A model generated the notes under the pieces. It was not told the DNA's origin and did not search any database. It saw only the letters and a program-made list of their open reading frames with translations. Source: Candidatus Shapirobacteria bacterium (GTDB lineage Bacteria > Patescibacteriota > Microgenomatia > UBA12405). Taken from it: 64,000 bases of DNA. Position numbers and translations under genes: made by a program. The stretch covers positions 12,505 to 76,504 of the forward strand of contig JBAZZE010000002.1 of assembly GCA_041658955.1 (NCBI GenBank), written 5' to 3'. Below are positions 16,389 through 64,000 of this stretch, piece after piece; the first letter of the stretch is position 1, and each line of letters begins with the position of its first letter.

Positions 16389-16455
16389 TATACCAATACT
16401 TAGTTTAATCTTTTATAAAAATATAAATAAATAGTGTTTATATAATTTAATATAC

Positions 16456-16464
16456 TGTTATAAT
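16456..16464 (+). promoter_or_regulatory. Candidate extended -10 element (TGtTATAAT) 6 nt upstream of the acyltransferase ATG, possibly a leaderless transcript
   Basis: TGTTATAAT at 16456..16464 in an 82-bp AT-rich divergent intergenic region. There is no SD sequence before the ATG at 16471. The background is AT-rich, so a chance match is plausible. Confidence 0.2.
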
Positions 16465-16470
16465 GTAAAA

Positions 16471-18803: not shown

Positions 18804-18810
18804 AGTTTTT

Positions 18811-24355: not shown

Positions 24356-24362
24356 ATATGAT

Positions 24363-47487: not shown

Positions 47488-48292
47488 ATTCTCCGGTGTT
47501 AATTCTCATTTCCAAATCTTTGTCGTAAACCCATTTGCGGCGATTTTTATCATCGTAATAATGAATAATATAAAGCCGGTAAAATACCGCTAAAGAATCT
47601 TTTAGACATAACAAAACAACTTTCATAAATGAGCTATCAAGATGGGTTCCGGAAAAATCATAGTTAAGTTTGATGGGAGCTTCATAAATTCTGGTGAAAC
47701 CAAGATGTTTGGAAACAGCCAAGACTTCGAGATCAAAGGCAAATGTTTTGATAAGTAAACGAGGGAGGATTTTATTGAGAACTTGTTGCTTAAATATTTT
47801 GATACCAGCTTGGGTGTCATGAAGATTTATCCGGAGTAAAAAAAGTGAAATTAGGTGAGCACCAAAACTAATAATGCGACGATGAAGAGGGTAGGATATT
47901 TGCGAGGCAGGATGAAATTTGCTTCCCACCACAATATCGGCTTCATACCATTCCATGTGTTCCAGAAGCATGGAAATACCGTTGGGGTCGATTTCCATTC
48001 CTGAATCTATAAAAGCCACATAGTCGCCTTGGGTGTGGGCGGCCCCATAACGGATGGCATAACCTTTACCATGATTTTGATTGTAGCCAATTACTTTTAA
48101 GTTGGGGTGATGAATGGTACTGGCAATCTTAAAAGAGTTGTCGACACTTTTTCCATCAATTACAGCAATAAGTTCGAATGGATAACGAATTTGTTCGAGT
48201 GTCTTGAGGATGGTGTTCAGGTCTTTTTTGATAGTAGATTCCTGACGATAAACCGGGACAATTACTGACAAAAAATGTAATTGACTTTTCAT
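47480..48292 (-). CDS. GT2 glycosyltransferase (DPM1/GtrB-like polyprenol-phosphate sugar synthase-like)
   Basis: 270 aa. LSVIVPVYRQESTI...AVIDGKSVDNS...AFIDSGMEIDP. Confidence 0.7.
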   Translation of the reverse strand: MKSQLHFLSVIVPVYRQESTIKKDLNTILKTLEQIRYPFELIAVIDGKSVDNSFKIASTIHHPNLKVIGYNQNHGKGYAIRYGAAHTQGDYVAFIDSGMEIDPNGISMLLEHMEWYEADIVVGSKFHPASQISYPLHRRIISFGAHLISLFLLRINLHDTQAGIKIFKQQVLNKILPRLLIKTFAFDLEVLAVSKHLGFTRIYEAPIKLNYDFSGTHLDSSFMKVVLLCLKDSLAVFYRLYIIHYYDDKNRRKWVYDKDLEMRINTGEYE

Positions 48293-49443
48293 CGATTTTT
48301 TATCAATTCATAGACCGCTAAAGTTTGTTTGGCTGTTTGTTGCCAAGAAAAAAACTTGGCACGTAATATTCCCAACTTAGATTGTTTAACTAATTCAGCT
48401 TTATTTTCCCAAAGTTTCTTCAAAGAATTCTGGAGGTGATGTTGTTTATATGGATCAAAAGTAATACCAACTTCTCCCATAATTTCGGGAAGGCTTGTCT
48501 CTGAACTATAAACTACCGGAGTTCCTGATTGCATGGCTTCTAGAGGACAAAGTCCAAAACCCTCCGCATATGATGGTTGGCAATAAATTGTAGCTAGGTT
48601 ATATAAATACGGTAAATCTCCACTGTCAATGAAACCCAACCGGTGAACAAGAGGATTACTAAATAATTTTTTTAGGATAGATAAATGTTTCAATTGAGGG
48701 CTAGGGATATTCAATAGATGCCGAATTAAATCCATGGGTCGACTGATACTTGGTTTTTCGAGTTTTAATTCGTTAATATCGATAGCTTGTTTGCCAGCAA
48801 TAACCAGAGGATAGTTTAGATTTACACAGGCTTTGACTAAGGAAGGAATATTTTTATTCCAATTTATATCACCTGTATAAAAAACAAATTTATCAGGTAA
48901 ATTGTTTTTCTTTTTTATTTGGGCTAATTTTTTTTGATCGGTAATTGGTTTGAAATCAGGGGTTGCTCCTTCGTAAGTAACGTAAATTTTATCTGCAGGA
49001 TATCTTAAATTTTCAGATATTATATTTTTAGAATAATGGGAAACAGTAATAATATAATCTGACTGGCGGGCTTTTAATCGCTGAATTTGCCACTTCATAA
49101 AACCTCTTATTCCTGAGGGAAAATGTTTTTTAAATTGGATCGGGATGAGGTCATGAATGGTGATTATTTGAGGAACTTTGGTTTTGGGTGGTAATGTCAA
49201 ATAAAACGGATCGAAGTAGGGATAATGAACCAAATCATAATCTTCAATTTTCAATTGGGAATCTTCAATCAGAAATATTTCGAAGTTTTGATATTGGGGA
49301 TTTGACTTAACTTCGTGCTGAAGTGCAGTAACCAGGTTGCGGGTATAAAAACCAACTCCCCTTTTGGAATTGCCGTCGTTAAGTGGAGATACGTCGATGG
49401 CTATTTTGAATTTATTACCCATATTAGTCCCAGTCCTTACCAA
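48289..49443 (-). CDS. GT4 family glycosyltransferase
   Basis: 384 aa. SYAEGFGLCPLEAMQSGTPVVYSSETSLPEI. Confidence 0.75.
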   Translation of the reverse strand: MVRTGTNMGNKFKIAIDVSPLNDGNSKRGVGFYTRNLVTALQHEVKSNPQYQNFEIFLIEDSQLKIEDYDLVHYPYFDPFYLTLPPKTKVPQIITIHDLIPIQFKKHFPSGIRGFMKWQIQRLKARQSDYIITVSHYSKNIISENLRYPADKIYVTYEGATPDFKPITDQKKLAQIKKKNNLPDKFVFYTGDINWNKNIPSLVKACVNLNYPLVIAGKQAIDINELKLEKPSISRPMDLIRHLLNIPSPQLKHLSILKKLFSNPLVHRLGFIDSGDLPYLYNLATIYCQPSYAEGFGLCPLEAMQSGTPVVYSSETSLPEIMGEVGITFDPYKQHHLQNSLKKLWENKAELVKQSKLGILRAKFFSWQQTAKQTLAVYELIKNR

Positions 49444-50356
49444 TAGTTATTTTTTGATTGGTAGAGGTGAGTTCAAAATATTTTACATAAGCTAAGGGGA
49501 AGCGAAGTGAAGAATACCAAGAAAAGACAAAACCGGAAAAACCGTCAAGTATTCCTTTGTGACGAATGTAAGTAAGCAAAAACCACCAAATTGGTTTGAC
49601 TAAAAAGTAATTCAAAAATGAAAGAAAAGATAGGGGAATTTTCTTTTCCTGAAGTTCGGTGGCAATGTTTGAGGTATAACGGTTGTTTCTCAGAAGATAT
49701 CTAGAAAAAGTAGGATCGGCAAAATGTAAAAGATCGGAACTAAGCCAACCTACCCGCCCATCGGTTTGAATTTGTTCATGAACATCTTTAGCTGGTTGTC
49801 GGCTCAAACTTTTTCTAAAAAGACGAATTTGACCATCAGGATAGACCCCACCATAGCGGATGAATTTACCGAGAAAATAATTGAGACGAGGTACAAAAAA
49901 GGCAGTGTATTCGTTCGAAAGTGAGCCGTATTGGCCATCTCGAGCCTGAAGAATTTGTTGATGCCGTAAAAATAAAGGATGAGAGTTTAATACTGAGTTT
50001 GATTGTTCGGTCATTTTTTCCGAACTAAGAGAAAGTAATTTTTGAATTTCTTTTGATAACTCTTGACTGACTGCTTCATCAGCATCAAGCAATAACACCC
50101 AATCATGCTTACATTCATCTATCGCCATTTGCTTGTTGATATGAAAGTTTGGTTTGTTGGTGGTCGATATGATCCTAACAAAGGGATATTTTTTGGCTAG
50201 GGTAACGGTGTTGTCTGCTGACTGGCCATCAACAATGATGATTTCACTGGCTAAACCTTCTATGCTTTTTAGACAACGATCGATATTGGCCGACTCGTTG
50301 TAAGTGGCAATGGCAACTGAAAGTGGAGTATTATTTTTCATAGATTCTAAACCCAA
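49424..50356 (-). CDS. GT2 family glycosyltransferase (WaaE/KdtX-like)
   Basis: 310 aa. LSVAIATYNESANIDRCLKSI...IIVDGQSADNT...LLLDADE. Confidence 0.75.
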   Translation of the reverse strand: MGLESMKNNTPLSVAIATYNESANIDRCLKSIEGLASEIIIVDGQSADNTVTLAKKYPFVRIISTTNKPNFHINKQMAIDECKHDWVLLLDADEAVSQELSKEIQKLLSLSSEKMTEQSNSVLNSHPLFLRHQQILQARDGQYGSLSNEYTAFFVPRLNYFLGKFIRYGGVYPDGQIRLFRKSLSRQPAKDVHEQIQTDGRVGWLSSDLLHFADPTFSRYLLRNNRYTSNIATELQEKKIPLSFLSFLNYFLVKPIWWFLLTYIRHKGILDGFSGFVFSWYSSLRFPLAYVKYFELTSTNQKITIGKDWD

Positions 50357-51935
50357 TAGTACCTCCGGGAAGAACTAATGAAGCGATAGGTACTGCCTTG
50401 ATCTCTTCATCCCCAGCGATAACTAAACTTTTGGCCGGGATGGAATCCCAGTTGATTTTACCAAAATTGAGGTTATCAATCTTCTCTACGGTAGAAAAAC
50501 CGTATTTATCAGGTGGGGTGAGTTGAATTTGAGGTTGTATTTTTTGGGGAGGATATTTAGTAAAAAATAAATACAAAATGTAGGGTTGGTCGTAGGTTGA
50601 AGTAAAGTAGATCTGATCATATTTTGATTTTTGACTATCAATAAAGGGCATTAGTGAAGAAAAACCAGTGTTCCAAGCATATGGGTATCGTTGAGGAGCA
50701 TGGACAAAATAAGCATCGACAAAATAAAAAATCGAGAATATATAGAGAACAGTAATAATAAAGAAATTGTGTGGTCGATATGACTTGGTCAAATCGATAA
50801 TTCCAAATAATCCTGCACCTATGAATATTGATAAAGGAATAACCATGGGTAAGGCTCGGAGGGCTGATGGTGCTTGAAAAGTTAGCGAAGAAGCCAACGG
50901 AGATATGAAGAGTAGGGACAGAGAGAGAAGGGCTAGTTTTTTAGTGTTTTGATTTTTGAGTAAATAGATTATTCCAATAATTAATAGAGGTAGCTCGATA
51001 AGATGTAGCTGTCCCATATCTGGAGACTTGGATCGAGGTACTTCATCACCTTTTAGAAATAAGAAATTTAAATCAAAATGGGAGACGTATTTTTGAGCCC
51101 AAGAGATAGTATAGAGGACCCGTTTATTATGCATAATTCGGTTGGAAAGTAGTGTATTGCCATGTTGATTAAGTAGTTCTTCAGAACGAGCAATTGGACC
51201 ATAGTCAGCGGTGAGGCCGACACCGCCAAATCGTGCAGCTCCACCACTACTCAAAAAAGAAACTAGGACTGGGACAGCAATAACTGCGGCAAAAAGAAAT
51301 GGAAAAATAATTGACTTAAAGTGGGAAATTAGGAATTTAAAATTAGTGGTAAATAGGAATAAGCAAATTAAAGGGGCGACAATTCTAGCTGAGTGATAGA
51401 CATAAAGAGAAGCGACAAAAGATATTAGCGAAAACAGAAAATATTTTGTCTTGGCCGAATAAATGTATTTATAAAACAGATAAATCCCATAAGTCATAAA
51501 GAACAGAGCAACTGATGATTCCCAGGCGCCACGACTAAAGTGAATATGCCATGGAGAGACACTTAAAATAAATGCACTGGACAAAGCAAGCGGATGCGAC
51601 GTAGATAATAAAAGTACGAGTTGATAAAAGATGTATATAGTTGCTAAAGATAGGATTACATTGGGAAGACGAACTGCCAATGGAGTTAGTCCGATGGCTT
51701 TTATAAATGGCATAGCCAGATAAACATAACCACCTGGTTTATAGTCCCCAAAGGAACGAAAGTGTAGAGGCCAACTGATGCCATGTTCATCCTTGCCAGT
51801 CTGTAATAAGGAATAAGCATTGTAACCAAGGGCAGCTTCATCAGGGTTTAGAGCGGGAAGAGTATCTATGCGGTAGATTCTCAATACAAGCGCTAATAGT
51901 AATACCAATATTAAAAATATTTTAGTTAGTTTCAT
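50331..51935 (-). CDS. PMT_2/ArnT-like GT-C membrane glycosyltransferase (polyprenol-phosphate-sugar dependent), tandem paralog
   Basis: 534 aa. The first-loop motif LPALNPDEAALGYNAYSLLQTGKDEHG...FRSFGDYKPGGYVY carries the DE...Y hallmark of GT39/GT83/PMT_2. There are about 11 TM helices and a C-terminal soluble domain. Confidence 0.75.
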   Translation of the reverse strand: MKLTKIFLILVLLLALVLRIYRIDTLPALNPDEAALGYNAYSLLQTGKDEHGISWPLHFRSFGDYKPGGYVYLAMPFIKAIGLTPLAVRLPNVILSLATIYIFYQLVLLLSTSHPLALSSAFILSVSPWHIHFSRGAWESSVALFFMTYGIYLFYKYIYSAKTKYFLFSLISFVASLYVYHSARIVAPLICLFLFTTNFKFLISHFKSIIFPFLFAAVIAVPVLVSFLSSGGAARFGGVGLTADYGPIARSEELLNQHGNTLLSNRIMHNKRVLYTISWAQKYVSHFDLNFLFLKGDEVPRSKSPDMGQLHLIELPLLIIGIIYLLKNQNTKKLALLSLSLLFISPLASSLTFQAPSALRALPMVIPLSIFIGAGLFGIIDLTKSYRPHNFFIITVLYIFSIFYFVDAYFVHAPQRYPYAWNTGFSSLMPFIDSQKSKYDQIYFTSTYDQPYILYLFFTKYPPQKIQPQIQLTPPDKYGFSTVEKIDNLNFGKINWDSIPAKSLVIAGDEEIKAVPIASLVLPGGTIGFRIYEK

Positions 51936-53532
51936 AAGCGTAAAAAGTAGAAGTATTATTGATAGGGCTGAGTGGAGTTAGGGTTTTTAGGTCAATCCCC
52001 TGTCTGATGGCATCATCATAGGAAAGGATTAAGACTTGTTTTGGTTGAGTCTTTTGAAAGCTAAAACTGGGTACTTCAAACTTAATATTGTCAATTTTTG
52101 AAATTTTTCCAGTATCTTTGCCATCAACTGTAAGAGATGCTTGTGCTTGATAATCCCTGGGTGGATATTTTGAGTAAAAAAGATAATAGATATATGGTTG
52201 ACCGTAGAAATCGGTAAAAGTGACTTGTTTGTCTTTACCATGATCGATGACATATTTGGCAGCTTCTTGATAACCGTAGAGTAAATGAGCCGGAGAAACT
52301 TTGGTCATGTGATGGTAATAAAGGTCTTGATAGTAAATAAAAGAGACTAGGTAAGCAGAAAAAATGGTGATGGGTATAAGAATGCTTTTAATTTTGTTGA
52401 AAGTAAAAATAATTCCTTTGGCAGCAAAATACATTAGAGGAATAGAAAGTGACAAGGTTCTAACGGGTTGAATGCTATCTTTTGTAAGTGCCCCGGGAAG
52501 TGGCCCAATAATTAGCCAGAGTAGAAAAATAAAATCTGGCTTTTTGAGGGAAGAGACAAGAGTAGAAAAAATTCCCAAGATAACAAATATAATTGAAGGA
52601 TAGAGAATAACTCCAATATATGGAGCTGAGTGTCGTTGAATTTGCCAGTCACCTTCAAATATTAAAAACTTTGGAGAAAAATGATTAAAGTAACGAGTAA
52701 GGAAATTTTGAACAAAAAAGATGGCTTCGTTATGGAAAATGTTGTAGTTTAGTTGATTACTCTCACCTATAATTTGCCGGGTGTCATTGGTAGGTCGATG
52801 ATAATTCCAAAGGGCGTAGACACTCAGCCGGTTGGCATCATTTTGGGTAACTAGTCCGTAAATAATTGGGAGTGAAAGCAAAATAAGGGGAAGGGCAAGA
52901 CGAAGAATGTTTTTGAATGATTTGAATACAGAAAGATGGGTAAAAAAAAGTATTGATAATAAAAGCGGGGTCATTATTTTGCCACCTTGGTAGGTATAAA
53001 ACGTTAAACCGAAAATGAGCGAAGACCAGATTAGTTTTTGATTTACAAAAAGTAAGGTAGCCAGCGCTAATTCGAATAAAAGGACATTGGTTTCCCAGGC
53101 ACCACGGCTAAAGTGAATATTCCACGGGTTAAATGAAATGAGAAGAGCAGTAATTAAAGCTAGTTGCTTAGATTTTGGACTAAGTTTTAGAATTAAAAGA
53201 TAAATAAGAAGTGGTAGAAGAGAGCCGAGAATAATCGAAGGGAGTCTAACTGAAAGTGGATTTAGACCAAAAATAGCGACAAAAGGAATGGTAAGGTAGA
53301 CGTATAAACCAGGTTTGTAGTCTCCAAAGGATTTGAAAACTAATGGTAGAGTAGCGCCATATTCATCTTTACCTGTTTCCAAAATGGAATAGGCATTGTA
53401 ACCGAGTGAGGCTTCATCCCAAAGTAGTGGAGGATAGCTTGAATTGAAGAGCCTTACTCCTAGAGCTAAAACAGTGATGAGAATAATGGCAAATCTATTC
53501 ATAGCTGATGATATCAAACGCGGGTGAGCCAT
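51922..53532 (-). CDS. PMT_2/ArnT-like GT-C membrane glycosyltransferase, tandem paralog
   Basis: 536 aa. PPLLWDEASLGYNAYSILETGKDEYG...FKSFGDYKPGLYVY. Confidence 0.75.
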   Translation of the reverse strand: MAHPRLISSAMNRFAIILITVLALGVRLFNSSYPPLLWDEASLGYNAYSILETGKDEYGATLPLVFKSFGDYKPGLYVYLTIPFVAIFGLNPLSVRLPSIILGSLLPLLIYLLILKLSPKSKQLALITALLISFNPWNIHFSRGAWETNVLLFELALATLLFVNQKLIWSSLIFGLTFYTYQGGKIMTPLLLSILFFTHLSVFKSFKNILRLALPLILLSLPIIYGLVTQNDANRLSVYALWNYHRPTNDTRQIIGESNQLNYNIFHNEAIFFVQNFLTRYFNHFSPKFLIFEGDWQIQRHSAPYIGVILYPSIIFVILGIFSTLVSSLKKPDFIFLLWLIIGPLPGALTKDSIQPVRTLSLSIPLMYFAAKGIIFTFNKIKSILIPITIFSAYLVSFIYYQDLYYHHMTKVSPAHLLYGYQEAAKYVIDHGKDKQVTFTDFYGQPYIYYLFYSKYPPRDYQAQASLTVDGKDTGKISKIDNIKFEVPSFSFQKTQPKQVLILSYDDAIRQGIDLKTLTPLSPINNTSTFYAYETN

Positions 53533-55072
53533 CGAGAAAGTTAATGGTTTTAATTACTTTTGAACTTTCTGTTGGGTAATTTTGGGGACTGGATATTAGA
53601 AGAGTGTTTTTGGGAAATTTCATGTCTTTGATTTCCCAATCATTTTTAAATTCAAATTTGTCAAAAGCGTCAACCCAATACCAATCAGAATGAAAGTTGG
53701 TGGATAACTTGGGATCGTTTTGATAAGTGGATGGACTGATTGGCCAATAAAATAGAAAAAACTCATGTGGTTCACCATACTTTTTGGTAACAATAATTCG
53801 ATCATATATAGAATAATTTTCCTTTGCAATATCGATTGCTTGTTGGTAGCCAAATTGCCAGGCAGAAGAATATTTTTGATTGTAACTAAGATATTTTGAC
53901 CAATAAAAAAGGAAAAATATAAAGATGGTAACTATGATCAGCCGATAATCAATTTTTATTTTTGAGATACCGATAGTTATAAAAAGAATATAAAAAATTA
54001 GACCGGTACTGGAACGAAGAACAGGAAAATCACCAACGGTTAGAGCTGCTGGTAATAAAGTAACGAGAAGGATAGGAATTAGATAAAAATACCGACCATC
54101 ATTTAATGAAAATAAAAGACCGATATACAAAAATGGCATCAGGATTAAAAAGATAATCCCAGTTTGGGGTACAGAAAGTTGCTGATTTTGAGTGCCATTT
54201 ATAAACAAGGGAAAGGGGTTAAATTGGTTTAAATAATTTATAGACAAAGTTTGAAAAAAGTAGACAGGGCGATTGTTTATTAGTCGATTGATGAATTGTG
54301 GACCAGTAAATGAATTTCGCTTGAGGTTAATAAGATTCACAGCATTGGGATTTATAATGCCCACCCAACGATTGCGAGCAAATGATGTTGGCGAGAAAAG
54401 ATTGATCAAGTTGGGAATTACTAATATTGATAAAACTATCAGAGCGGGGGCTATTTTTTTGGTGATTTTAAAGGGATGAAAATAATATAAAACCGGAAGA
54501 AGTAAGGGAACGATAATCCGAGTATTGTGATAGGCATACATGGATAGTCCCAGAAAAACACTAGAGTATAGAAGGTTAAGGGAACGGTTTTTATCGAGAA
54601 TAAAGTGATAAACACCCATTAACAAAAGAGTTTGGGAAAAGGTGGATTGAAACACCCCGCGAGAAGGAAAAAATGCCCAAGGTAAAAAAGCCGCTAATGT
54701 CATAGCGATTAGGGCAAGGTGTTCCTTTTTAAATAAAAGTTTGGCGAAAAGGTATGTATAAACTACAAAAATTAATGAAAAAATGACAGTTGGTAGACGA
54801 ATACTTAAGGCATTGAGGCCCAAAAGTTTGATAAAAGGGATGGTGAGATAAAGGTTGAAAGTAGTCGGATAGTCACCGTATGCTCGGAAGTTAAAAATAG
54901 GGAAAGCAGTCCCCCACTGATCACGGCCTGTTTCTAAAATAGAATAAGCGTTGTAGCCATGGGAGATTTCGTCCCAATTTAATCCCGTGGGAAGAGAATC
55001 TATTTTCCATAAACGGAAAAAGGTTGCTAGAAATAGAATTATCCAGAAAAATGTTTTATGATTTAGCTTCAC
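53495..55072 (-). CDS. PMT_2/ArnT-like GT-C membrane glycosyltransferase, tandem paralog
   Basis: 525 aa. LPTGLNWDEISHGYNAYSILETGRDQWG. Confidence 0.7.
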   Translation of the reverse strand: MKLNHKTFFWIILFLATFFRLWKIDSLPTGLNWDEISHGYNAYSILETGRDQWGTAFPIFNFRAYGDYPTTFNLYLTIPFIKLLGLNALSIRLPTVIFSLIFVVYTYLFAKLLFKKEHLALIAMTLAAFLPWAFFPSRGVFQSTFSQTLLLMGVYHFILDKNRSLNLLYSSVFLGLSMYAYHNTRIIVPLLLPVLYYFHPFKITKKIAPALIVLSILVIPNLINLFSPTSFARNRWVGIINPNAVNLINLKRNSFTGPQFINRLINNRPVYFFQTLSINYLNQFNPFPLFINGTQNQQLSVPQTGIIFLILMPFLYIGLLFSLNDGRYFYLIPILLVTLLPAALTVGDFPVLRSSTGLIFYILFITIGISKIKIDYRLIIVTIFIFFLFYWSKYLSYNQKYSSAWQFGYQQAIDIAKENYSIYDRIIVTKKYGEPHEFFLFYWPISPSTYQNDPKLSTNFHSDWYWVDAFDKFEFKNDWEIKDMKFPKNTLLISSPQNYPTESSKVIKTINFLDGSPAFDIISYE

Positions 55073-56639
55073 GATATAGTTTGATTATATATAAAAACAC
55101 TCCAATTAGGCTGAGAATGTTGGCAAAGGAGCGGATAGGAGTGTTTTTGAATTGTAATAAATATTGGTAGTGACCTGCTGGTAATTCAAAGCTAATTTGA
55201 CCGTATTTTGGGTCAATTTGGTAATTTGTTTTTTGATTATTAACAGACAATTCCCAGTTTGGAAAATAAGTCACTGGAAGGATGATGTTGGCACTAGGAG
55301 TATCAACAGTAAGCTCACCACTGATTTGATGGCTGTTTTTGGTAAATAAAATGTTGGTTATTTGGCCAGTGATAGTGTTTGCCTGGGTGGGAGCCATTAT
55401 TTCTGGGAATGAAGTGGTGGAACGAGGCCAATAATCTTTTAAACCGGCTCCACTTTGGCGATAAATTTCCTGGGTAGTTAGTTTTTGACCATCGGTAAGG
55501 GTGGGGTACCAAATATCTTCTTTGAAGTAATTAATATTTAACCCAATGGTTAGGAAAATGATTATTAATAATAAAAATTTGTTTTTGGTAACGATTCCAG
55601 AAATAAAAGAAAAACAAAATACGACAAGTCCCAAAAAGCGCCAAGGAAATTGATAGTAAGGCATAAAAGAAAGAATCTGCCAGATAAAAGTAGATCGGTT
55701 ATGAGTTAAAAAAGTCGCAAAAAGTCCGATGCCAAAAAAAGTAAATATAGTTTTTTTGAAAGATGAACGGATGGCAATTAAAAGGGCAATAAGGGGAAGT
55801 ACCCAATGAACAATACCTATCTGAAGAGAAAGATCATCAACAGGTCCCCAAAGCGAGGCGCCGTAACCCCAAAAACGAGAAATAAATAATTGGTTGATAG
55901 TGGCAAAGTGAATAATGTAGTTGAAGTAGCCTTGAGTCATGCTACTGACAGTAGTAAGATTTTTTTCAAAAAAAGCCGGAATAATGAAAAAAGCAGATAA
56001 CAAGATTGAATAAATCGAGTTTTGAATAAGGTAACGAGTATTTTTATGAATAATAGAAAATATTAAAAGTACTGGAAGAAAATAGACTAGAGTGAGGTTG
56101 TGACTTAAGAGAAGGGCGGTGAGAGAAATAATAAAAAGATTGGTTCGTTTTTTATATAAGGAATACATGATAAGTGGTAAGAGGTTGATGGCCCAGTGTT
56201 CGGCTAGAGCACCTCTGACAAAGCTATCTAAGGAATGATATGGAGCAAAAGTATAAAGAACACTACTGACAAGTCCGCCAACTGGGCCAAAGAATGAGGA
56301 AGAAAGTAAATACATGCCAAGTGAGCCGATAAAAAAGGGAATAATGAATGAAATCTTCAGGCTATCAATCAGGGATAATCCGGCGAGATGAAAACTCTCA
56401 GCAAATGCGTAAGGTAGAGGGGAATAAAAGTTAAAAAGTGGGTAGGTGTATCCGAAACCTCCGTCGGGAATCAAACGACAGGGAATTTGACGGTCAAGAA
56501 CACACTGGTGAAATTGAGCCAGTCGGAAAACATGCATATCATCTTGCATACTAAAGTAGCCAGGGCGCCATAAACGATGTGAGGCAAGTAGAGCAAAAAG
56601 AAGAGGAATAATGATGATTAGTTTAAATTTTTTGATCAT
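55056..56639 (-). CDS. YfhO-like polytopic membrane protein (GT-C fold candidate)
   Basis: 527 aa. The N-terminus HRLWRPGYFSMQDDMHVFRLAQFHQ resembles the YfhO N-terminal DD..FH..R motif. There are at least 12 TM helices and a C-terminal soluble domain. Confidence 0.4.
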   Translation of the reverse strand: MIKKFKLIIIIPLLFALLASHRLWRPGYFSMQDDMHVFRLAQFHQCVLDRQIPCRLIPDGGFGYTYPLFNFYSPLPYAFAESFHLAGLSLIDSLKISFIIPFFIGSLGMYLLSSSFFGPVGGLVSSVLYTFAPYHSLDSFVRGALAEHWAINLLPLIMYSLYKKRTNLFIISLTALLLSHNLTLVYFLPVLLIFSIIHKNTRYLIQNSIYSILLSAFFIIPAFFEKNLTTVSSMTQGYFNYIIHFATINQLFISRFWGYGASLWGPVDDLSLQIGIVHWVLPLIALLIAIRSSFKKTIFTFFGIGLFATFLTHNRSTFIWQILSFMPYYQFPWRFLGLVVFCFSFISGIVTKNKFLLLIIIFLTIGLNINYFKEDIWYPTLTDGQKLTTQEIYRQSGAGLKDYWPRSTTSFPEIMAPTQANTITGQITNILFTKNSHQISGELTVDTPSANIILPVTYFPNWELSVNNQKTNYQIDPKYGQISFELPAGHYQYLLQFKNTPIRSFANILSLIGVFLYIIKLYREAKS

Positions 56640-58231
56640 AAATTAGAAAAGATCTGAAAAGCTTCACCTTCTTGGAATTTTTTAGGAAGAATCTCTTTAA
56701 GTGTAAACCTATTTGGAATAGTAACTGATTGTGTTGTAGGGATGACAAAAAGAGTTGGAGTGGTAGTAGAAGGAAATGCATTTAAGTTTATTTGGCCAAA
56801 GCAATAACGATTGTCAAGACATTTGCCTGAAAAATAATTTGTATTTAGTTCGGTCAAATGAGCAGTTAGAGGTTCGTGGGGAAGAAATGGATAATAATAA
56901 AGAAAAAACGGAAGAAACGGTTCGGCTGTGTCTGAAAAATAAATCTGATGGTCAGGATATTTGGTGGTAGCTAGTACGGCTTCTTTAAGGTTAGTGTGCC
57001 AAGTTCGGGCAGATAGCTGAGGGTAGTGATTTTGATAATAATGCCCAAAATTTATGAGAAGTAACAGATAAAATGGGGTTATTAGAGGAATTTTTGAAAG
57101 TGCTAGCGAGGAAAAATAAATTAATGAAGGAAGAATAATTATTAGTCTGGTGGCATGTGGACCAAGTGAATCGCGAGTCAGGGCAAATGGAATCGGACCT
57201 AAAATAAGTACCCAAAAAAATAAAAGGCCTAGTTTGGTTGGCTTTTTGAGATATAAATAAAGTCCGTAAAGTATCATGAAAAAATCAATGATGTAAAACA
57301 TACCATGCTGACCAAAACCTTGACGGAGGTTTTTATCACCTTCGAGAAATAAAAATTCTGGAGAGAAAGAATATAAATAGTTTTTGACAAAACGTTCTAC
57401 GATGAGCTGATACTTGTTATGAAAAAGATAGGATAGAGGTGGGGTGGGAACACCCACTTCGTCAGGATGTTCTAAAAGAATATCTTGGTACCTTAAGGTA
57501 TCAGTGATTTGTTCCCGATGAGGTTCGGTAAAGATACTAATATAAGAAAAGCGATAACCAGCTCGACCTTTAAGGGTGTCGACTGCTAGTGGAGTTAGGA
57601 CAAGTAATCCAATAAAAAACGAAATAATTAAAGCTTTGGGTTTTGGTTTCCAGATTAGATAACAAAGAGGAACTAGGAAGACTATAAATAACTTGGCAGT
57701 GCTGTAAAAGTACGCAGAAAGCGATAAAGAAATTACGGAGGCTACTAGATAGATAGTTTGGTGTTTTTGGTGGTGTTTTTGCCAAAAGTAAATACCGGTT
57801 AGTAGACAAAAAATCATGCCGGAAACTTCAAATCCGGTGCGACTGTAGTGAATGGCCCATGGGGAAATGGCTAAAAGAAATGCAGCAAATACAGAATTGG
57901 TTAGCAAATAAAATACCGCAACAGACAAAATACCGAAAATTGCTGATGGTAGTCTGACACTCAGTTCGGGAGATGAAGTAAAATTTTGGACAGCTGCAAC
58001 AGAATATATATAGAGTGAAGTTCGCCAATCGGAAAATGATTGAAAATGGACGGGAAATTTGTTGCCAAAATAGTCGGCATGGTTTTGGTTAAAGGTTTTG
58101 GCTTGGTAGCCGGCATCAACTTCATCAGAAAAAAGTGATGGGGGTAGCGTGGTAATCCGACTTATCCGAGGAAAGACTGCCAGAAAGGCAATAGTGATAA
58201 AAATAACGATGGATAATAAACGCCGGTTCAT
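56636..58231 (-). CDS. PMT_2/ArnT-like GT-C membrane glycosyltransferase, paralog
   Basis: 531 aa. PPSLFSDEVDAGYQAKTF...FQSFSDWRTSLYIY. The same DEVDAGYQ motif appears in the partial gene at 62983. Confidence 0.7.
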   Translation of the reverse strand: MNRRLLSIVIFITIAFLAVFPRISRITTLPPSLFSDEVDAGYQAKTFNQNHADYFGNKFPVHFQSFSDWRTSLYIYSVAAVQNFTSSPELSVRLPSAIFGILSVAVFYLLTNSVFAAFLLAISPWAIHYSRTGFEVSGMIFCLLTGIYFWQKHHQKHQTIYLVASVISLSLSAYFYSTAKLFIVFLVPLCYLIWKPKPKALIISFFIGLLVLTPLAVDTLKGRAGYRFSYISIFTEPHREQITDTLRYQDILLEHPDEVGVPTPPLSYLFHNKYQLIVERFVKNYLYSFSPEFLFLEGDKNLRQGFGQHGMFYIIDFFMILYGLYLYLKKPTKLGLLFFWVLILGPIPFALTRDSLGPHATRLIIILPSLIYFSSLALSKIPLITPFYLLLLINFGHYYQNHYPQLSARTWHTNLKEAVLATTKYPDHQIYFSDTAEPFLPFFLYYYPFLPHEPLTAHLTELNTNYFSGKCLDNRYCFGQINLNAFPSTTTPTLFVIPTTQSVTIPNRFTLKEILPKKFQEGEAFQIFSNL

Positions 58232-58263
58232 GTGATAATAGTTTATTTTATACTATCCACAAT

Positions 58264-59544
58264 ATGATTAGTTTGTTTAATTATCCACCAACTGAGGAAC
58301 AAATTTGGATTCTGATGAAAGTGGGAATCGGCGGTGAAGCTGGGCTATTAGCTTTGCGGATATTGACAATTTTATTAACGGGAATAGTTTTGTGGTTGTG
58401 GTTTAGTAAACTCAAAAATATATTATCGATAAAAAGTTCGATATTAGCAGTTGGCTTGCTTTTAATATCCCCCACAATGTGGGTGTTATGTTGGTCATAT
58501 CCGTTAATGATAGTAAAAATAGCTGTAGTGCTTTTGATACTGTCATATTTAAAAACCAAATGGTGGGTGGTGGTACTTATATTACTAGGAATTGGATTTT
58601 ATAATGTGAAATTCCTTAAACAAAATCCGGCAATATTATCGAAGATAACTATGGCTGATGCCAAAAATGAAGTAAATATGAGATTTATGTCGGAGGATAG
58701 CTTGCGAATAAAAATGGAATTACCTTTGTGGTGGCGACGAATAGGTTATAACAAAATTTTTATTACTTATCGTGAGGTTTTGGCTGAAGCTTTACCTTTT
58801 CTTGATTTGGAAACTCTTTATTTTCAGGAAGTACATCCGATGGAGCAAAAGTCAGTGGTTTTGTTTTATTGGCCGGAAGTTTTTATATTAGTAATCGGAA
58901 TTTATTTTTGGGTCACTTCAAAGATAAATAAAAACGCTATGAACATGCTGGTAATTTTGATACTAATTGCTTTTACTGATTATTTATTTTCAAATACGGT
59001 GGTATACCAACGATTTATTTTGATGTTAATTCCACTGTCTTTAATTATGGCGACTGGTGCTGAAAAAATATTGACTAATAATAAATATATCGGTGGATTG
59101 GTGACTATGGTGGTGCTGTATGCAGTCTATGTTAATGGTTATGACATTACTCACCGAGCTGACTTTTGGCTAGACAATCGTCCGTTAGTCTATAAATCTT
59201 GGTATGCCGGAATCAGAACTCTTGGTGTTGAAAATTATCCAAAAATTTATATTTCAACCCTGATCGGTAACAGTGATAATTACTGTTGGTTTTATCTTGG
59301 AGAACAATGTAAGTCTGAAAGGTTCGTATTCAATAGTTTTGATCTTTCTAAGGGTAATATTGATAATGGTCTATATGCTGGGTTTACAGGTGAATTTGTT
59401 GGCCCAAGATTTAAAAATGATTTTAATACTGATTGGGAAACCCAACTCCCATCATTGGGACTGACTTTAATTTCAAAAGAAAATATTCGAGATACTGTGG
59501 CGTACAAGTATGGTAACGATATTGGTTTAGTGGTCAAAAAATGA
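58264..59544 (+). CDS. Hypothetical polytopic membrane protein (possibly a degenerate PMT_2-like paralog lacking the DE motif)
   Basis: 426 aa with about 8 TM helices and a C-terminal soluble region with weak resemblance to the C-terminal domains of neighbouring PMT_2 paralogs. Confidence 0.35.
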   Translation: MISLFNYPPTEEQIWILMKVGIGGEAGLLALRILTILLTGIVLWLWFSKLKNILSIKSSILAVGLLLISPTMWVLCWSYPLMIVKIAVVLLILSYLKTKWWVVVLILLGIGFYNVKFLKQNPAILSKITMADAKNEVNMRFMSEDSLRIKMELPLWWRRIGYNKIFITYREVLAEALPFLDLETLYFQEVHPMEQKSVVLFYWPEVFILVIGIYFWVTSKINKNAMNMLVILILIAFTDYLFSNTVVYQRFILMLIPLSLIMATGAEKILTNNKYIGGLVTMVVLYAVYVNGYDITHRADFWLDNRPLVYKSWYAGIRTLGVENYPKIYISTLIGNSDNYCWFYLGEQCKSERFVFNSFDLSKGNIDNGLYAGFTGEFVGPRFKNDFNTDWETQLPSLGLTLISKENIRDTVAYKYGNDIGLVVKK

Positions 59545-61193
59545 AATCAAAGATAGCTATTATAATCGTGGTGGTAACGATGGTGTTGGGAATAATCTTA
59601 CGGTTTACTGGACTTGATAAGTCCCCTCCCTCACTAGGATTTGATGAAGCAGCTCTTGGTTACAATGCTTATTCACTTTTACTTACCGGAAAAGATGAAT
59701 ATGGAAATTTTTTACCAATATCTTTACGCTCCTTTAATGATTTTAAACCGGCTTTATATGGGTATTTGACTATTCCTTTTATTAAAGTGTTTGGTCTAAA
59801 TGAATCGTCAGTACGAATGGTGTCGGCTGTGGCAGGGATTGTGTCATTGTGGTTTTTATATAAATTTTTGTCAGTTTTTATAAAGGACAAACTAGTTTGT
59901 AGCTTAGTATTTTTATGGCTGTCTTTTGAACCGTGGAGACTGCATTTTTCCAGAAACGCTTTTGAGACACATCTCTCATCAGCATTCTTTTTAATGGGTG
60001 CTTATTTTTTAATAAAAAATAAAAAGATACTTTGGAGTTTATTGTTCTTTGGTCTGTCTGCCTATAGCTATCATTCGGCTCGATTGAGTGTGCCAATGTT
60101 GATAGTACTTTGGGGAATAGACCCTTTAAAATGGTTTTGGATGGATAGTGTCAAGGAAATGGTTACCTCAGTTTGGAATGGAGTAACTAAAATGTGGTGG
60201 ATACTGGCACTATTTATTATTATAGTCATTCCAGTATTTATGGCCAATAGTAGTTTGGTGTTGACTCGATTTAATCAAGAAAACGTATTCAAAAGATTTT
60301 ATCCATACGCACCAAAAGAATTTGTACAAGGTATAAACCCCTTTTTGTCGTTTAACTCAAATGCTTTGTATTACTTTGGAGGAATCATAAGTGGTCATGT
60401 GATGTCTTACTTCTCTCCGATTAATTTGAATTCGAGAATATACGCTTGGGTAAAAATGTCACCACAATTTATACCGGGAATGGGGATGTTGGGATGGATT
60501 GAAGGAGTAGTGTTTTTATTTGGGTTGGTAGTGGTCTTTAAAAACCTAAGAAAATCTTTTGAACACCGCTATCTTATTTATTGGATGATTTCTGGAATTG
60601 CTCCGGCGGCGGTTACTTGGACTTGGTATCACCCATTACGTTCTTTAAATATATTTCCGGCGATTGAAATAATAGTGGCCCTGGGAGCGGTGGAGATATT
60701 AAGGATGATTAAAAACAAGCTGTGGTATGTCTTAATCGCTGTTATTTTAATAATAAGTGTGGTTTACACTATTAATAACGAATTGCTTTATAGTGCCTAT
60801 GAAAACCATGGTGAATATCAACCGGGAGGTTTTAGAGAAGGAATGATGACTCTAAAAGAATTATCAAAAGATTATGATCAAGTAATAATTGATTCTCCTC
60901 ATGCCCAGAGCTTTATATTTGTACTTTTTTATCAAAAAATTGATCCAAATATTGTCCATAAATATGCAGATATTCGACCCAAGCCGGGGGTGGAGGGAAA
61001 TTTAAACTTTAACTTTGAGAAATTTGTTTTTAGACCAATTGATTGGCCCAAGGATAGGAATCTGAAGAAAACGATTATTTGGACTGATGACACGATGAGT
61101 AAAGAAGAGATTGAGGCCATTCCAGGTGCTAAACTACGTATGGTAGTGCCGAACGCTTTATATGACACTGCTAGAATAATAACCATCGAATAA
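59541..61193 (+). CDS. PMT_2/ArnT-like GT-C membrane glycosyltransferase, paralog
   Basis: 550 aa. PPSLGFDEAALGYNAYSLLLTGKDEYGNFLPISLRSFNDFKPALYGY. Confidence 0.75.
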   Translation: MKSKIAIIIVVVTMVLGIILRFTGLDKSPPSLGFDEAALGYNAYSLLLTGKDEYGNFLPISLRSFNDFKPALYGYLTIPFIKVFGLNESSVRMVSAVAGIVSLWFLYKFLSVFIKDKLVCSLVFLWLSFEPWRLHFSRNAFETHLSSAFFLMGAYFLIKNKKILWSLLFFGLSAYSYHSARLSVPMLIVLWGIDPLKWFWMDSVKEMVTSVWNGVTKMWWILALFIIIVIPVFMANSSLVLTRFNQENVFKRFYPYAPKEFVQGINPFLSFNSNALYYFGGIISGHVMSYFSPINLNSRIYAWVKMSPQFIPGMGMLGWIEGVVFLFGLVVVFKNLRKSFEHRYLIYWMISGIAPAAVTWTWYHPLRSLNIFPAIEIIVALGAVEILRMIKNKLWYVLIAVILIISVVYTINNELLYSAYENHGEYQPGGFREGMMTLKELSKDYDQVIIDSPHAQSFIFVLFYQKIDPNIVHKYADIRPKPGVEGNLNFNFEKFVFRPIDWPKDRNLKKTIIWTDDTMSKEEIEAIPGAKLRMVVPNALYDTARIITIE

Positions 61194-61194
61194 G

Positions 61195-62415
61195 ATGAGA
61201 AAAATATTGTTATTGGCGGCGACATTATATTTACTGGTAGCACCTTTCACTTATCATCCTGATAATAAACTGGTACTGTACTACGCAACTCTAGGTAACG
61301 GAAAAGTTTGGGATATCTATAGCTACCTCAATACAAATTATGATGCTGCTCCGAAGTTCCACTATCCACCAATGCATTATTGGGTGGTGAAAGCAGAATA
61401 CCCGCTAGTTAGACTGGTTGGTGGAAAGGGAATTGAAAATTGGTTAAGACGAGGGGCAAACGAGGCTTTTGATGACCCTAATATATTTATATATAATTTG
61501 GCAACAAAACTGCCTATCTTAGGATTGGTGCTGCTAACCGGTTGGTTAATATTCAAAATCTGTTTGCAACAGGGATTTAATAATTACAAATCGAGGTGGG
61601 CGGCTGCTATATGGTTGTTTAATCCAATTATTTTTTATAGTGCTATTGTCATGGGACAAAACGACATGTTGGCGATTGCTCCGTTTATGGTGGGTTGGTA
61701 CTTGATGAGTTCATATCCTTGGGTAGCGTTTGCAATATTCGGAATAGCTAGTGGAATAAAAACATACCCGTTAATATGGGCAATATATTTGGCATTTACT
61801 TATGTAAAGTTCCCCATTTGGAAACGACTTGGACTAGTTATGGTCAGTATAGGTATCTATTATCTGACAATGGCACCATTTTTGAGATATGAATACTTTA
61901 GGACTGATGTTTTGTATTCTGGTTTGGCGACACGGATGTTTGAAGCTGGAATTGATATTGGACTGGGTGATAGAGTACTGATTGTGCCACTACTATTGGG
62001 AATACTTTTGTTGGTGGCTATAAGTAAAAAAATAGGTAAATCATTTGTGAATACTGCTAAATTATTGGTCGCAGTTAATTTAATCATTTTAGGTTTTATC
62101 CATTTTCATCCCCAGTGGTTTATTTGGATAGTACCTTTCTTATCGATATATCTTGCATCACATAAAAAAGATTTTTTGAGTTTATGGCTTTTATTGGGAG
62201 TTATGGTTGGAGTGGTGTTGCTTTTTGATGATAAGTTTTTATACTGGGGACTATTGAGTCCTTTAAACAATGGACTGTTAAACTTGCCTTTAATTCGTGA
62301 TGTATTGGTTGCTAAAGGCATGGATGTGATGTTGCTGTCGAATTTACTACATACTTTGGCAGCGGCTGTTGGTGGTTATTGGTTTTGGAAAGTATTAAGT
62401 GAAAAGAACAAATAG
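61195..62415 (+). CDS. Polytopic membrane protein, DUF2029/GT87-like (GT-C-type mannosyltransferase-like)
   Basis: 406 aa with about 10 TM helices. An HYPPMHYW (YPP) motif sits in the first loop. Confidence 0.35.
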   Translation: MRKILLLAATLYLLVAPFTYHPDNKLVLYYATLGNGKVWDIYSYLNTNYDAAPKFHYPPMHYWVVKAEYPLVRLVGGKGIENWLRRGANEAFDDPNIFIYNLATKLPILGLVLLTGWLIFKICLQQGFNNYKSRWAAAIWLFNPIIFYSAIVMGQNDMLAIAPFMVGWYLMSSYPWVAFAIFGIASGIKTYPLIWAIYLAFTYVKFPIWKRLGLVMVSIGIYYLTMAPFLRYEYFRTDVLYSGLATRMFEAGIDIGLGDRVLIVPLLLGILLLVAISKKIGKSFVNTAKLLVAVNLIILGFIHFHPQWFIWIVPFLSIYLASHKKDFLSLWLLLGVMVGVVLLFDDKFLYWGLLSPLNNGLLNLPLIRDVLVAKGMDVMLLSNLLHTLAAAVGGYWFWKVLSEKNK

Positions 62416-62986
62416 ACCTCTTCGAATATTTGTTGTTCTATTGGGAATAATGTTGTTTTTGGCTGGGTTATTTTTGGTGGTGTCAGTGATACCCTCAAAA
62501 GTTACGGTTGAAAACTTTAGGCTATATTCCACTTTATTCCCTAATTTATCGGAAAAGCAAAAATTTGAAGCCAATTTTGTATCTATTTATCCTGGTTTGG
62601 AGCGGATTGATGTATTGTTCAAAAACCCAAATTTAGAAAGTCGGGATGAGTTGAAAATAAAAATATTGAGAAATAGCGGTGAGATAGTTTATCAACAGGA
62701 CTTTTCGGGATTTAATTTTGGTGATACTTCACATGCTAGACTCGATTTTCCAAAAGGAACCGTAAGAAAAGGAGAAAACTTGTCGGTGTTAGTTGAATTG
62801 ACCAAGGTAATCGATGGGAAATTAATGGTGGGAACAAAAAATGGTGAATTGAATTTTATTCAATACTACAATTCGAATACTGCTGGCGCTGTAGTGGGTA
62901 GAATGGTGAATACTTTGAACAAGGTTGTTGGTCAGCCTATTGTGGTTTTGTTACCAATAGCTTTTGGAGTGATGACAATATGGTAG
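62399..62986 (+). CDS. Hypothetical protein with an N-terminal TM anchor and an extracytoplasmic domain
   Basis: 195 aa. An N-terminal hydrophobic helix (IFVVLLGIMLFLAGLFLVV) is followed by a beta-rich soluble domain. No motif recognised. Confidence 0.35.
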   Translation: MKRTNRPLRIFVVLLGIMLFLAGLFLVVSVIPSKVTVENFRLYSTLFPNLSEKQKFEANFVSIYPGLERIDVLFKNPNLESRDELKIKILRNSGEIVYQQDFSGFNFGDTSHARLDFPKGTVRKGENLSVLVELTKVIDGKLMVGTKNGELNFIQYYNSNTAGAVVGRMVNTLNKVVGQPIVVLLPIAFGVMTIW

Positions 62987-64000
62987 CTATTATCAAAAAG
63001 AATATTTGGCTAATTTTAATCTTATTTTTGGCGATTGGGTTGCGGATGTATCGGTTGGATTATCTTGAATTATTTGGCGACGAAGTTGATGCTGGATATC
63101 AAAGTTATTCGATATTATTACACGCTAAAGATTATCGAGGAAATTGGCTGCCACCATATATGGAAAGTTTTTCAGAATGGAGAGCGCCAGGATTGATGTA
63201 TACAATGGTGCCGTTTATTAAACTATTGGGATTGAATGAATGGGGAGTGCGGATGCCGTCGGTCTTTTTTGGAGTGGTGTCTATAGTCGGGTTTTATTGG
63301 CTGTTACTAAGATTAAAAGCGTCCAAAAAAGTAGCTTTATGGTCAGTATTGTTTTTAGCCATTTCTCCGTGGCATATCCAATATAGCCGATCGGCTTTTG
63401 AACTGACACTACTATCGGCAATGTTGGTATGGGGTATGGGTTATTTACATAAGGGAATTATTGAAAAGAAAAATATTTATGTTGTATGGTCAGCTCTGGT
63501 ATTTTCTATCTCTATTTATACCTACAATACGGCTAATATTTATGTTCCATTATTTTGTATAGTGATGCTAATTCTGTTTAGAGCTAACTTAAAACAAGCT
63601 TTTGTTTTGATAGTTTCCGGGGCGATTATTTGTCTACCACTTATATACCAAATAGTCTTTGGTCATGCCGCAGAGAGGTTTTCAAAAGTATCAATTACCA
63701 ATAATAAAGAAGTAGTGGCAATGATAAATGATTATCGAAATGCTGATAACTCGTCACTGATGTCAAAAGTATTTTTTAATAAGTACACGGTATCGATAAG
63801 ACGAGTCTTGTTTAACTATACAAATGCATTTTCAGGAGACTTTTTGTTTAGAACTGGAGATGTAACTTTTAGACATTCACTCCATCAAGTAGGATATTTG
63901 TATTGGGTGATGTTGCCACTAATAATCATTGGATTATTAAGTGCCAATAAATATATGGTGATGTGGCTATTGATTGCTCCCATACCTTCTAGCCTGACTT
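62983..64000 (+). CDS. PMT_2/ArnT-like GT-C membrane glycosyltransferase, 3'-partial in window
   Basis: The ATG at 62983 overlaps the upstream stop. Translation MVAIIKKNIWLILILFLAIGLRMYRLDYLELFGDEVDAGYQSYSILL...FSEWRAPGLMY continues to the window edge without a stop. It is not in the ORF track because it is edge-truncated. Confidence 0.7.

Follow-up and report, generated by a model that had tools for sequence, protein, structure and literature searches.

A conserved array of GT-C glycosyltransferase genes in a likely surface-glycan island of Candidatus Shapirobacteria

Bacteria of the candidate phyla radiation (CPR, or Patescibacteria) make up a large share of bacterial diversity and spend their lives attached to other cells or reliant on them; to our knowledge, their surface chemistry is almost entirely unexplored. 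What, then, does a genome of roughly 0.6-1.1 Mb do with a dozen membrane-embedded glycosyltransferases of the GT-C fold, an exceptional density for its size? The locus that raises this question lies in a 64,000-nucleotide stretch of a Candidatus Shapirobacteria bacterium (Microgenomates, CPR; assembly GCA_041658955.1, contig JBAZZE010000002.1, positions 12,505 to 76,504), hereafter called the window, in which genes are named by their first coordinate. A first-pass annotation, made from the letters alone, had described positions 50331-64000 as a tandem array of at least six PMT_2/ArnT-like paralogs. Our analysis indicates that this segment most likely forms the GT-C end of an island for surface-glycan synthesis longer than 64 kb. 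In the reading we favour, with moderate confidence, its enzymes would assemble or decorate a surface glycopolymer or lipoglycan step by step outside the cytoplasm, drawing on polyprenyl-phosphate sugars.

The six genes singled out by that annotation (50331, 51922, 53495, 56636, 59541 and 62983) do encode PMT_2-type proteins. Every one matches the Pfam models PMT (PF02366) and/or PMT_2 (PF13231), five with at least one match above the gathering score, and the profile searches returned these glycosyltransferase families rather than unrelated membrane families. The exception in score, 59541, reaches only 17.7 bits, yet it aligns over its full length with the other five and keeps the DE pair. The six align end to end at 28-35% identity, contain about 10-12 hydrophobic segments each by hydropathy, and share a set of invariant residues (D32-E33, G37-Y38, D49, R89, P128-W129, S134-R135 and R235). 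The acidic pair in the first extracytoplasmic loop, a hallmark of the protein O-mannosyltransferases (PMT, family GT39), survived careful alignment: DE is present without exception in the six paralogs, in 32 orthologs and across 80 related loci (286 of 286 array members), where R235 is likewise invariant (297 of 297). The longer motif said to define the group, DE(A/I/V)..GYNAYS, was exact in four paralogs but relaxed to DEVDAGYQ(A/S)(K/Y)(T/S) in 56636 and 62983, so only DE..GY is common to all six. Pseudogene decay was ruled out, all copies being intact with invariant motifs, as was recent tandem duplication, given paralogs that are merely 28-35% identical.

An AlphaFold2 model of 50331 (pLDDT 81.9, pTM 0.85) was compared with the Protein Data Bank (PDB) using Foldseek, and the top 42 matches were all GT-C proteins (template-modelling score 0.31-0.54, identity 10-18%), among them STT3/PglB/AglB, ArnT, ALG9/ALG12, Pmt4, Emb and AftA/B. 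A sequence profile of the six paralogs matched nothing in the PDB, ArnT and PMT included; because they are linked to solved structures by fold and not by sequence, we regard them as distant GT-C members without a close solved relative. NCBIfam searches with the GT-C proteins gave sub-threshold matches only (Agl23/TIGR03663; LA_3751/3752 family), and Pfam found no MIR domain in any of the six. Taken together, the family matches and the model support their assignment as polyprenol-phosphate-sugar-type GT-C transferases. We infer the use of such donors from family membership and from the co-operonic gene 47480, which resembles dolichol-phosphate-mannose synthases (DPMS).

The window is nearly gap-free, with 55 coding open reading frames (ORFs) of at least 150 amino acids, 31 of them glycosyltransferase genes. 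Ten of these ORFs fall within 50331-64000, and one is present at every coordinate named in the first-pass annotation. The array thus occupies about 14 kb of a glycan-biosynthesis island of at least 64 kb. It is not a tandem array in the strict sense: four PMT_2-type genes lie on the minus strand and two on the plus strand, giving two divergent arms that are separated by 32 bp between 56636 and 58264 and have non-PMT_2 genes interleaved, including the membrane-protein gene 55056 in the minus arm (Table 1). The minus-strand run continues from 58231 down to 40603 as 14 co-directional ORFs whose stop and start codons mostly overlap, joining four PMT_2 genes and the YfhO-like gene with GT2, GT4, DPMS-like, radical S-adenosylmethionine (SAM) and methyltransferase genes. 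Elsewhere the window holds eight GT4 and 11 GT2 genes, together with genes of glycopolymer type (a Wzm/Wzt-type ABC-2 transporter, a Wzy_C-like protein and a 993-amino-acid GT2-GT2-GT4 protein) and genes for GDP-mannose 4,6-dehydratase, several epimerases and an acyltransferase_3 protein. The estimate of about 12 GT-C proteins in the window was accurate: we count 12, namely nine of PMT_2 type, one probably YfhO/PTPS_related-like (55056), one probably GT87/DUF2029-like (61195) and 58264. An acidic first-loop motif is carried by 11 of them, which are plausibly catalytic judging from these residues; the twelfth, 58264, is probably non-catalytic.

Table 1. Features of the window discussed in the text (coordinates of the 64,000-nucleotide stretch; aa, amino acids; TM, transmembrane helix).
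Coordinates	Strand	Assignment	Length and motif	Basis or remark
1847..3304	-	PMT/PMT_2-type GT-C	485 aa; first loop RQTDT	PMT and PMT_2 matches above cutoff
11475..12410	+	LPG_synthase_TM (MprF flippase-type) membrane protein		two genes upstream of 13391
13391..14062	+	second DPMS/GtrB/PpgS-like GT2	223 aa	PDB, NCBIfam
17442..18803	-	SAM methyltransferase fused to DPMS/AglJ/ArnC-like GT2 domain	453 aa, single polypeptide	Pfam, PDB, NCBIfam
18811..20754	-	PMT_2/GT22-like GT-C	647 aa	PMT_2 45.8 bits and GT22 match; low-GC segment
30037..31020	+	CofD/YvcK-family (PF01933) gene		immediately upstream of 31029
31029..32747	+	PMT_2-like membrane domain with C-terminal TPR repeats, TMTC-like	572 aa; loop SDDY	PMT_2 22.7 bits, weak
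32747..34141	+	radical SAM
35718..37286	-	radical SAM
37340..38788	+	radical SAM
42724..44259	-	radical SAM
44919..46484	-	B12-binding radical SAM, HpnJ-like best match		Pfam; NCBIfam HpnJ 1.5e-36, below cutoff; synteny
46516..47487	-	GT2 with about four C-terminal TM	323 aa	Pfam GT2 and Glyco_trans_2_3; core operon member
47480..48292	-	DPMS/GtrB/ArnC/PpgS-like GT2	270 aa; one C-terminal hydrophobic helix	PDB and NCBIfam
48289..49443	-	GT4 (GT-B) cytoplasmic glycosyltransferase		Pfam, synteny; core operon member
49424..50356	-	soluble GT2	310 aa	nearest characterised SunS/ThuS/GmaR; core operon member
50331..51935	-	PMT/PMT_2-type GT-C	534 aa; DE at residues 32-33	Pfam PMT 27.8 bits; anchor of conserved core
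51922..53532	-	PMT/PMT_2-type GT-C	536 aa; DE motif	Pfam PMT 32.4 bits; core member
53495..55072	-	PMT_2-type GT-C	525 aa; DE motif	PMT_2 32.6 bits; core member
55056..56639	-	YfhO/PTPS_related-like GT-C membrane protein	527 aa; first loop ..SMQDDMH.., D33 invariant	via orthologs
56636..58231	-	PMT_2-type GT-C	531 aa; DEVDAGYQ	PMT_2 28.6 bits; first gene of minus-strand operon
58264..59544	+	degenerate PMT_2 paralog without TM1 and DE-containing first loop	426 aa	hhalign, AlphaFold2
59541..61193	+	PMT_2-type GT-C	550 aa; DEAALGYNAYS	17.7 bits, weak
61195..62415	+	GT87/DUF2029-like GT-C	406 aa; H21 and D23 invariant in first loop	via homologs
62399..62986	+	protein with hydrophobic helix at both ends	195 aa	between GT87-like 61195 and PMT_2 62983
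62983..64000	+	PMT/PMT_2-type GT-C	N-terminal 339 aa only (window end); DEVDAGYQSYS	PMT_2 36 bits

Conservation of the array was assessed with one genome per species. A profile search with an alignment of 50331 orthologs was used to assemble the loci; it returned 204 relatives, and 80 loci, almost all from Shapirobacteria, were kept; a search of contigs with the single sequence of 56636 gave no match. Orthologs of 50331 are 57-97% identical and fall into more than 120 clusters, labelled by their sources as GT39, ArnT-like or phospholipid carrier-dependent glycosyltransferases. About 48 Shapirobacteria loci are 15 kb or longer; when their ORFs were mapped onto the window by best hit, nearly all kept the order 53495 - 51922 - 50331 - 49424 (GT2) - 48289 (GT4) - 47480 (DPMS-like) - 46516 (GT2 with transmembrane helices) - 44919 (radical SAM) - 41709 (GT2). 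Each paralog has positional orthologs about 45-89% identical in other Shapirobacteria, and the three proximal genes (53495, 51922 and 50331) hold their position at 45-83% identity in nearly all species. The most conserved gene of the operon is 47480, with orthologs 54-94% identical. Because this core recurs in nearly all Shapirobacteria loci, the product of the array is likely to be central to the biology of the lineage.

Many loci in this set (L005, L009, L012, L013, L016, L024, L025 and others) carry a Shapirobacteria-type locus with the same gene order at 52-61% identity; the titles of their third-party annotation records ('uncultured Gammaproteobacteria', and in one case 'Candidatus Methanoperedens') are evidently wrong. 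The window cuts through 62983, and a relative, L085 (JACPHO010000001.1), shows how the array can end, with a full-length 514-amino-acid ortholog of that gene. Beyond it, positions 1-2106 of L085 encode a convergent 269-amino-acid GT2 protein and a protein of at least 718 amino acids without a Pfam match, from which we conclude that the island continues past the window end.

Transferases of this kind depend on donors, and the prediction of three GtrB/DPM1-like GT2 proteins in the window was borne out. The closest characterised relatives of 47480, 13391 and the C-terminal domain of 17442 are polyprenyl-phosphate-sugar synthases (DPMS 5mlz, GtrB 5ekp, ArnC, PpgS, AglJ and PgfS), while the control GT2 proteins 41709, 46516 and 49424 have other best matches. 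For 47480 the best PDB matches are Pyrococcus DPMS (5mlz, 1.3e-9), GtrB and ArnC, and the best NCBIfam match is PpgS, with AglJ, PgfS and ArnC also among the best; PpgS is the best NCBIfam match of 13391 as well. The NCBIfam scores lie far below the equivalog cutoffs, so these calls hold at family level only. On this evidence 47480 is a probable polyprenyl-phosphate-sugar synthase, co-operonic with the array.

These observations suggest the following scheme. The DPMS/GtrB/ArnC-like GT2 proteins (47480 within the operon, 13391 and 17442 farther away in the island) would load polyprenyl phosphate from nucleotide sugars at the cytoplasmic face, and the lipid-linked monosaccharides would presumably be flipped across the membrane. 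Up to 11 GT-C enzymes (nine PMT_2-type, one YfhO/PTPS-like and one GT87-like) would then transfer sugars singly to an acceptor outside. Each old and individually conserved paralog may have its own linkage or acceptor specificity, making the set an assembly or decoration line rather than a collection of redundant copies. The acceptor would be a glycopolymer or lipoglycan begun in the cytoplasm by the co-operonic GT2 and GT4 enzymes and exported by the ABC-2 transporter of the island. As a presumed order of action, a core common to the lineage would be made by the three proximal GT-C genes, and the species-variable distal genes would then add variable outer decorations, with 58264, its catalytic loop lost, serving as a non-catalytic partner of 59541. 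Multi-component transmembrane glycosylation systems provide known precedents (PMC8035078, PMC11127046, PMC9574508). We favour a glycopolymer or lipoglycan over a protein target because of the operon and island context, that is the GT2 and GT4 genes, the Wzm/Wzt-type ABC transporter and the sugar-nucleotide enzymes.

Several points weigh against this scheme. We know of no biochemical or glycan-structure data for any CPR organism, and the acceptor and the sugars are not readable from sequence. Besides PMT_2 the paralogs also match the PMT model, and their neighbour 49424, a GT2 protein, is nearest to the peptide and protein glycosyltransferases SunS and GmaR. Solved GT-C enzymes resemble the model only at template-modelling scores of 0.4-0.54 and 10-18% identity, and the NCBIfam matches are all far below equivalog cutoffs. 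Among the scanned window ORFs there was no GtrA-type flippase, priming phosphoglycosyltransferase or LCP ligase, ORFs below 150 amino acids not having been systematically scanned. Finally, with eleven transferases and no more than three or four donor synthases, several GT-C enzymes must share one donor. With regard to flipping, the MprF flippase-type protein encoded at 11475, two genes upstream of 13391, is a candidate lipid-linked-sugar flippase by its family, proposed because no GtrA was seen in the window.

A less likely alternative is protein O-glycosylation, in which each PMT-like paralog, in the manner of actinobacterial Pmt, would attach sugars to Ser/Thr residues of its own secreted or surface targets, such as pili, an S-layer or disordered Ser/Thr-rich regions, while other GT-C enzymes extend the O-glycan. 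It is a serious rival because of the PMT-model matches (PF02366 is above cutoff for 50331, 51922 and 1847), the DE motif that marks PMT enzymes and the SunS-like neighbour 49424, whose nearest characterised relatives SunS, ThuS and GmaR are cytoplasmic GT2 enzymes that glycosylate peptides or proteins. The TMTC-like protein 31029, combining PMT_2 with TPR repeats, points the same way, and the three putative donor synthases match PgfS, the donor synthase of a streptococcal protein-glycosylation system whose GT-C protein glycosyltransferases are a precedent (PMC12041528). However, the paralogs lack MIR domains, their profile matches no PMT chain in the PDB by sequence, and the 64 kb encode no candidate acceptor protein. 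Moreover, known bacterial O-mannosylation needs one Pmt, not at least six, and the genes here are co-operonic with GT2 and GT4 genes of polysaccharide type in an island that has an ABC-2 exporter.

The first-pass annotation also saw a diversifying family in the array, which in its strong form would make the paralogs a rapidly diversifying and partly redundant repertoire, its copies gained, lost and swapped to vary surface antigens in evasion of phages or hosts, with no fixed role for each. The periphery does behave in this manner. The distal genes 55056, 56636, 58264, 59541, 61195 and 62983 occur in only part of the species, with other GT-C types in their place elsewhere, so that the distal array varies in number, kind and orientation: across 36 loci of 21.6 kb with full flanks there are two to eight PMT_2-type genes (median five) and three to nine GT-C-like genes (median seven). 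Single-linkage clustering gave at least nine recurrent ortholog groups, two of which have no member in the window but occur in 18-20 loci; the groups of 51922 and 53495 occur in 63 and 57 of the 80 loci, that of 56636 in 24. A low-GC cassette carrying the GT-C gene 18811 looks acquired, and the C-terminal domain of 56636 is less conserved (41%). Against this stand the near-universal proximal three, the absence of recent duplications that follows from paralog identities of only 28-35%, and C-terminal domains that, in four of five paralogs, equal the membrane modules in conservation. Measured against the 83%-identical relative L085, the array genes have diverged no further than the GT2, GT4 and radical SAM genes beside them (74-89% versus 70-94% identity); no nearer relative offers enough sequence, and at this distance synonymous sites are expected to be saturated. 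Synteny, invariant motifs and this neighbour-like divergence show the family to be old and each member to be under constraint, the core being fixed and the periphery variable. By these sequence comparisons the array is neither a recent nor a generally fast-diversifying expansion, and we consider the repertoire explanation improbable. Copy numbers in relatives also qualify the statement that such enzymes occur once or twice per genome, which holds for ArnT and Pmt but not for this lineage or for mycobacteria.

An ArnT-type modification of membrane lipids with aminoarabinose or similar sugars for cationic-peptide resistance is highly improbable: Joint Genome Institute records do label orthologs '4-amino-4-deoxy-L-arabinose transferase-like', ArnT is among the top fold matches and the GT2 proteins match ArnC, but the window has no ArnA/B/D-type genes, CPR bacteria are established to be without lipid A, the fold search places ArnT no nearer than STT3 or PglB, the PDB gives no match at sequence level, and one lipid modification needs fewer than six or more paralogs.

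Within the favoured assembly scheme, the gene that opens the plus arm stands apart. A DUF2029-like pair had been proposed at 58264 and 61195, and the assignment is likely, by way of homologs, for 61195 only; for 58264 membership of GT87/DUF2029 was ruled out, since it has no PF09594 match and its relatives are the PMT_2 paralogs. The protein itself matches no Pfam family, and its profile aligns with the six paralogs (hhalign 97.2%, E 3e-11) over columns 87-454 only. Its AlphaFold2 model (pLDDT 89.9) has fold matches to ALG12, ArnT, ALG9 and STT3. In this family a short NYPP[TS]x[EQD]Q stretch stands in place of the DE..GYNAYS loop of about 70 residues, and TM1 is also missing from the window copy and its nearest relative. 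None of the invariant residues of the PMT_2 N-terminal module (positions 32-135: DE, R89, P128-W129 and S134-R135) is kept. Among 1.84 billion proteins this small family has just 100 representatives. Its window member and 59541 share a 4-bp overlap, and in related loci with a 59541-type gene a 58264-type gene always directly precedes it. We infer from this pairing that 58264 is probably a non-catalytic partner of 59541, and its family may represent a GT-C paralog that has been conserved despite the loss of catalysis.

The remaining GT-C proteins were assigned with varying directness. The proposals for 1847, 18811 and 31029 agreed with their PMT/PMT_2 matches, and in the TMTC-like 31029 also with its TPR repeats; in mid-island, a CofD/YvcK-family gene lies immediately upstream of the latter. 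The YfhO-like character given to 55056 is visible only through its orthologs: the sequence itself, 100% identical to NCBI protein WC851_01065, has no Pfam or NCBIfam match (best E 1.7), whereas among 33 orthologs (48-84% identical) 16 match PTPS_related (PF10131) and eight match YfhO (PF09586). Its profile aligns with the PMT_2 orthologs (hhalign 73%, E 3e-5). Similarly, 61195 (100% identical to NCBI protein WC851_01085) has no direct Pfam match, while 11 of 31 homologs match GT87 (PF09594), sources label homologs DUF2029 or GT87, and an 80%-identical ortholog bears the NCBI name DUF2029 protein. The small protein encoded at 62399 matched nothing in Pfam or NCBIfam; a 194-amino-acid counterpart at the same position in L085 indicates that it is conserved within the array.

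Base composition sets one part of the island apart. The plus strand has a strongly positive GC skew (about +0.12 to +0.37) regardless of gene strand, and the cumulative skew climbs almost monotonically across the window, a marked replication-strand asymmetry. The segment at about 16000-25000 differs, with 28-31% GC and near-zero skew versus 35-41% GC and a skew of +0.12 to +0.37 elsewhere. It contains the acyltransferase_3 gene, the 17442 fusion, the GT-C gene 18811, the 993-amino-acid GT2-GT2-GT4 protein and a methyltransferase, and by composition it looks like a variable cassette, either horizontally acquired or recently inverted.

Among the other neighbours, 46516 is not DPMS-like in the PDB search. 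The island has five radical SAM genes (32747, 35718, 37340, 42724 and 44919), four of them with a B12-binding domain. The best match of 44919 is HpnJ, a radical SAM enzyme that contracts the ring of a hopanoid sugar, and by these family resemblances the set suggests radical chemistry on lipid-linked sugars.

A wider picture can be drawn, tentatively and with low confidence. Shapirobacteria, perhaps with other Microgenomates, might make, for the most part outside the cell, a lipoglycan or wall glycan that defines the lineage and compares in complexity with mycobacterial lipoarabinomannan (LAM) or arabinogalactan. A conserved operon would encode the line of up to nine GT-C enzymes responsible, among them a dedicated pseudo-glycosyltransferase subunit of the 58264 family pairing with an active paralog. 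The HpnJ-like, B12-dependent radical SAM enzymes would remodel lipid-linked sugars, and the variable distal enzymes would write species-specific surface codes for host attachment or phage evasion. Concrete targets at the locus are the enzymes with the DE motif, the putative donor synthase 47480 and the pair formed by 58264 and 59541.

How does the array compare with known systems? We found no description of it in the literature on glycosyltransferases of CPR, Patescibacteria or Shapirobacteria, where multiple dolichol-phosphate mannosyltransferase copies have been remarked in Peregrinibacteria (PMC4736985), and GT87 with DPM copies in a saccharibacterium (PMC6031116). The nearest parallel is the mycobacterial and corynebacterial pathway for phosphatidylinositol mannosides, lipomannan, LAM and arabinogalactan, with Ppm1/PpgS donor synthases and the GT-C enzymes PimE (GT87), MptA-C, EmbA-C, AftA-D and Rv3779. 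There, as proposed here, a single glycoconjugate passes through many GT-C enzymes in succession on the outer side of the membrane, with donors supplied by DPMS-like GT2 proteins. A putative GT87-like member and cytoplasmic GT4 enzymes as possible primers are shared too, PpgS is the best NCBIfam match of both 47480 and 13391, and Emb and AftA/B are among the fold matches. Unlike that pathway, the Shapirobacteria proteins show no sequence-level orthology to Emb, Aft or Mpt, are short (about 530 amino acids), of PMT_2 type and with a small C-terminal domain, and are encoded in one operon-like array rather than scattered, in a CPR genome of roughly 1 Mb or less.

The multi-component systems of Gram-positive bacteria (CsbB/GtcA/YfhO; GacI/GacL; lactococcal Csd) and the Gram-negative GtrA/B/C systems (PMC8035078, PMC11127046, PMC9574508) use a GtrB/DPMS-like GT2 and a GT-C enzyme to decorate an exported polymer, and the island resembles them in its putative YfhO/PTPS-like member and its ABC-transporter-dependent polysaccharide pathway. 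They combine one GT2, one GT-C and GtrA, in contrast to up to 11 GT-C and three or four GT2 proteins with no GtrA seen here, and the present array is a conserved lineage core, not a strain-specific add-on. With the GT39 enzymes (eukaryotic PMT1-7, actinobacterial Pmt) and ArnT (GT83), the paralogs share the Pfam PMT/PMT_2 domain, the DE first extracytoplasmic loop and the GT-C class A fold; they differ in their 10-18% identity, in lacking MIR domains and any sequence-level PDB match, and in six to nine copies versus one or two.

The 58264-59541 pair recalls the EmbA-EmbB and Pmt1-Pmt2 heterodimers, being adjacent, co-translated and co-occurring GT-C paralogs, a likeness read here from the genes alone. 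Those known pairs keep catalytic residues in both subunits, whereas 58264 is without the DE loop and other invariant residues. The type of enzymology is already known, and the individual proteins are labelled GT39 or ArnT-like in public databases. What the comparison leaves as new, and apparently undescribed, is a lineage-wide, operon-encoded GT-C array, how densely it is packed in a genome no larger than about 1 Mb, and a conserved paralog that has dispensed with the DE motif.

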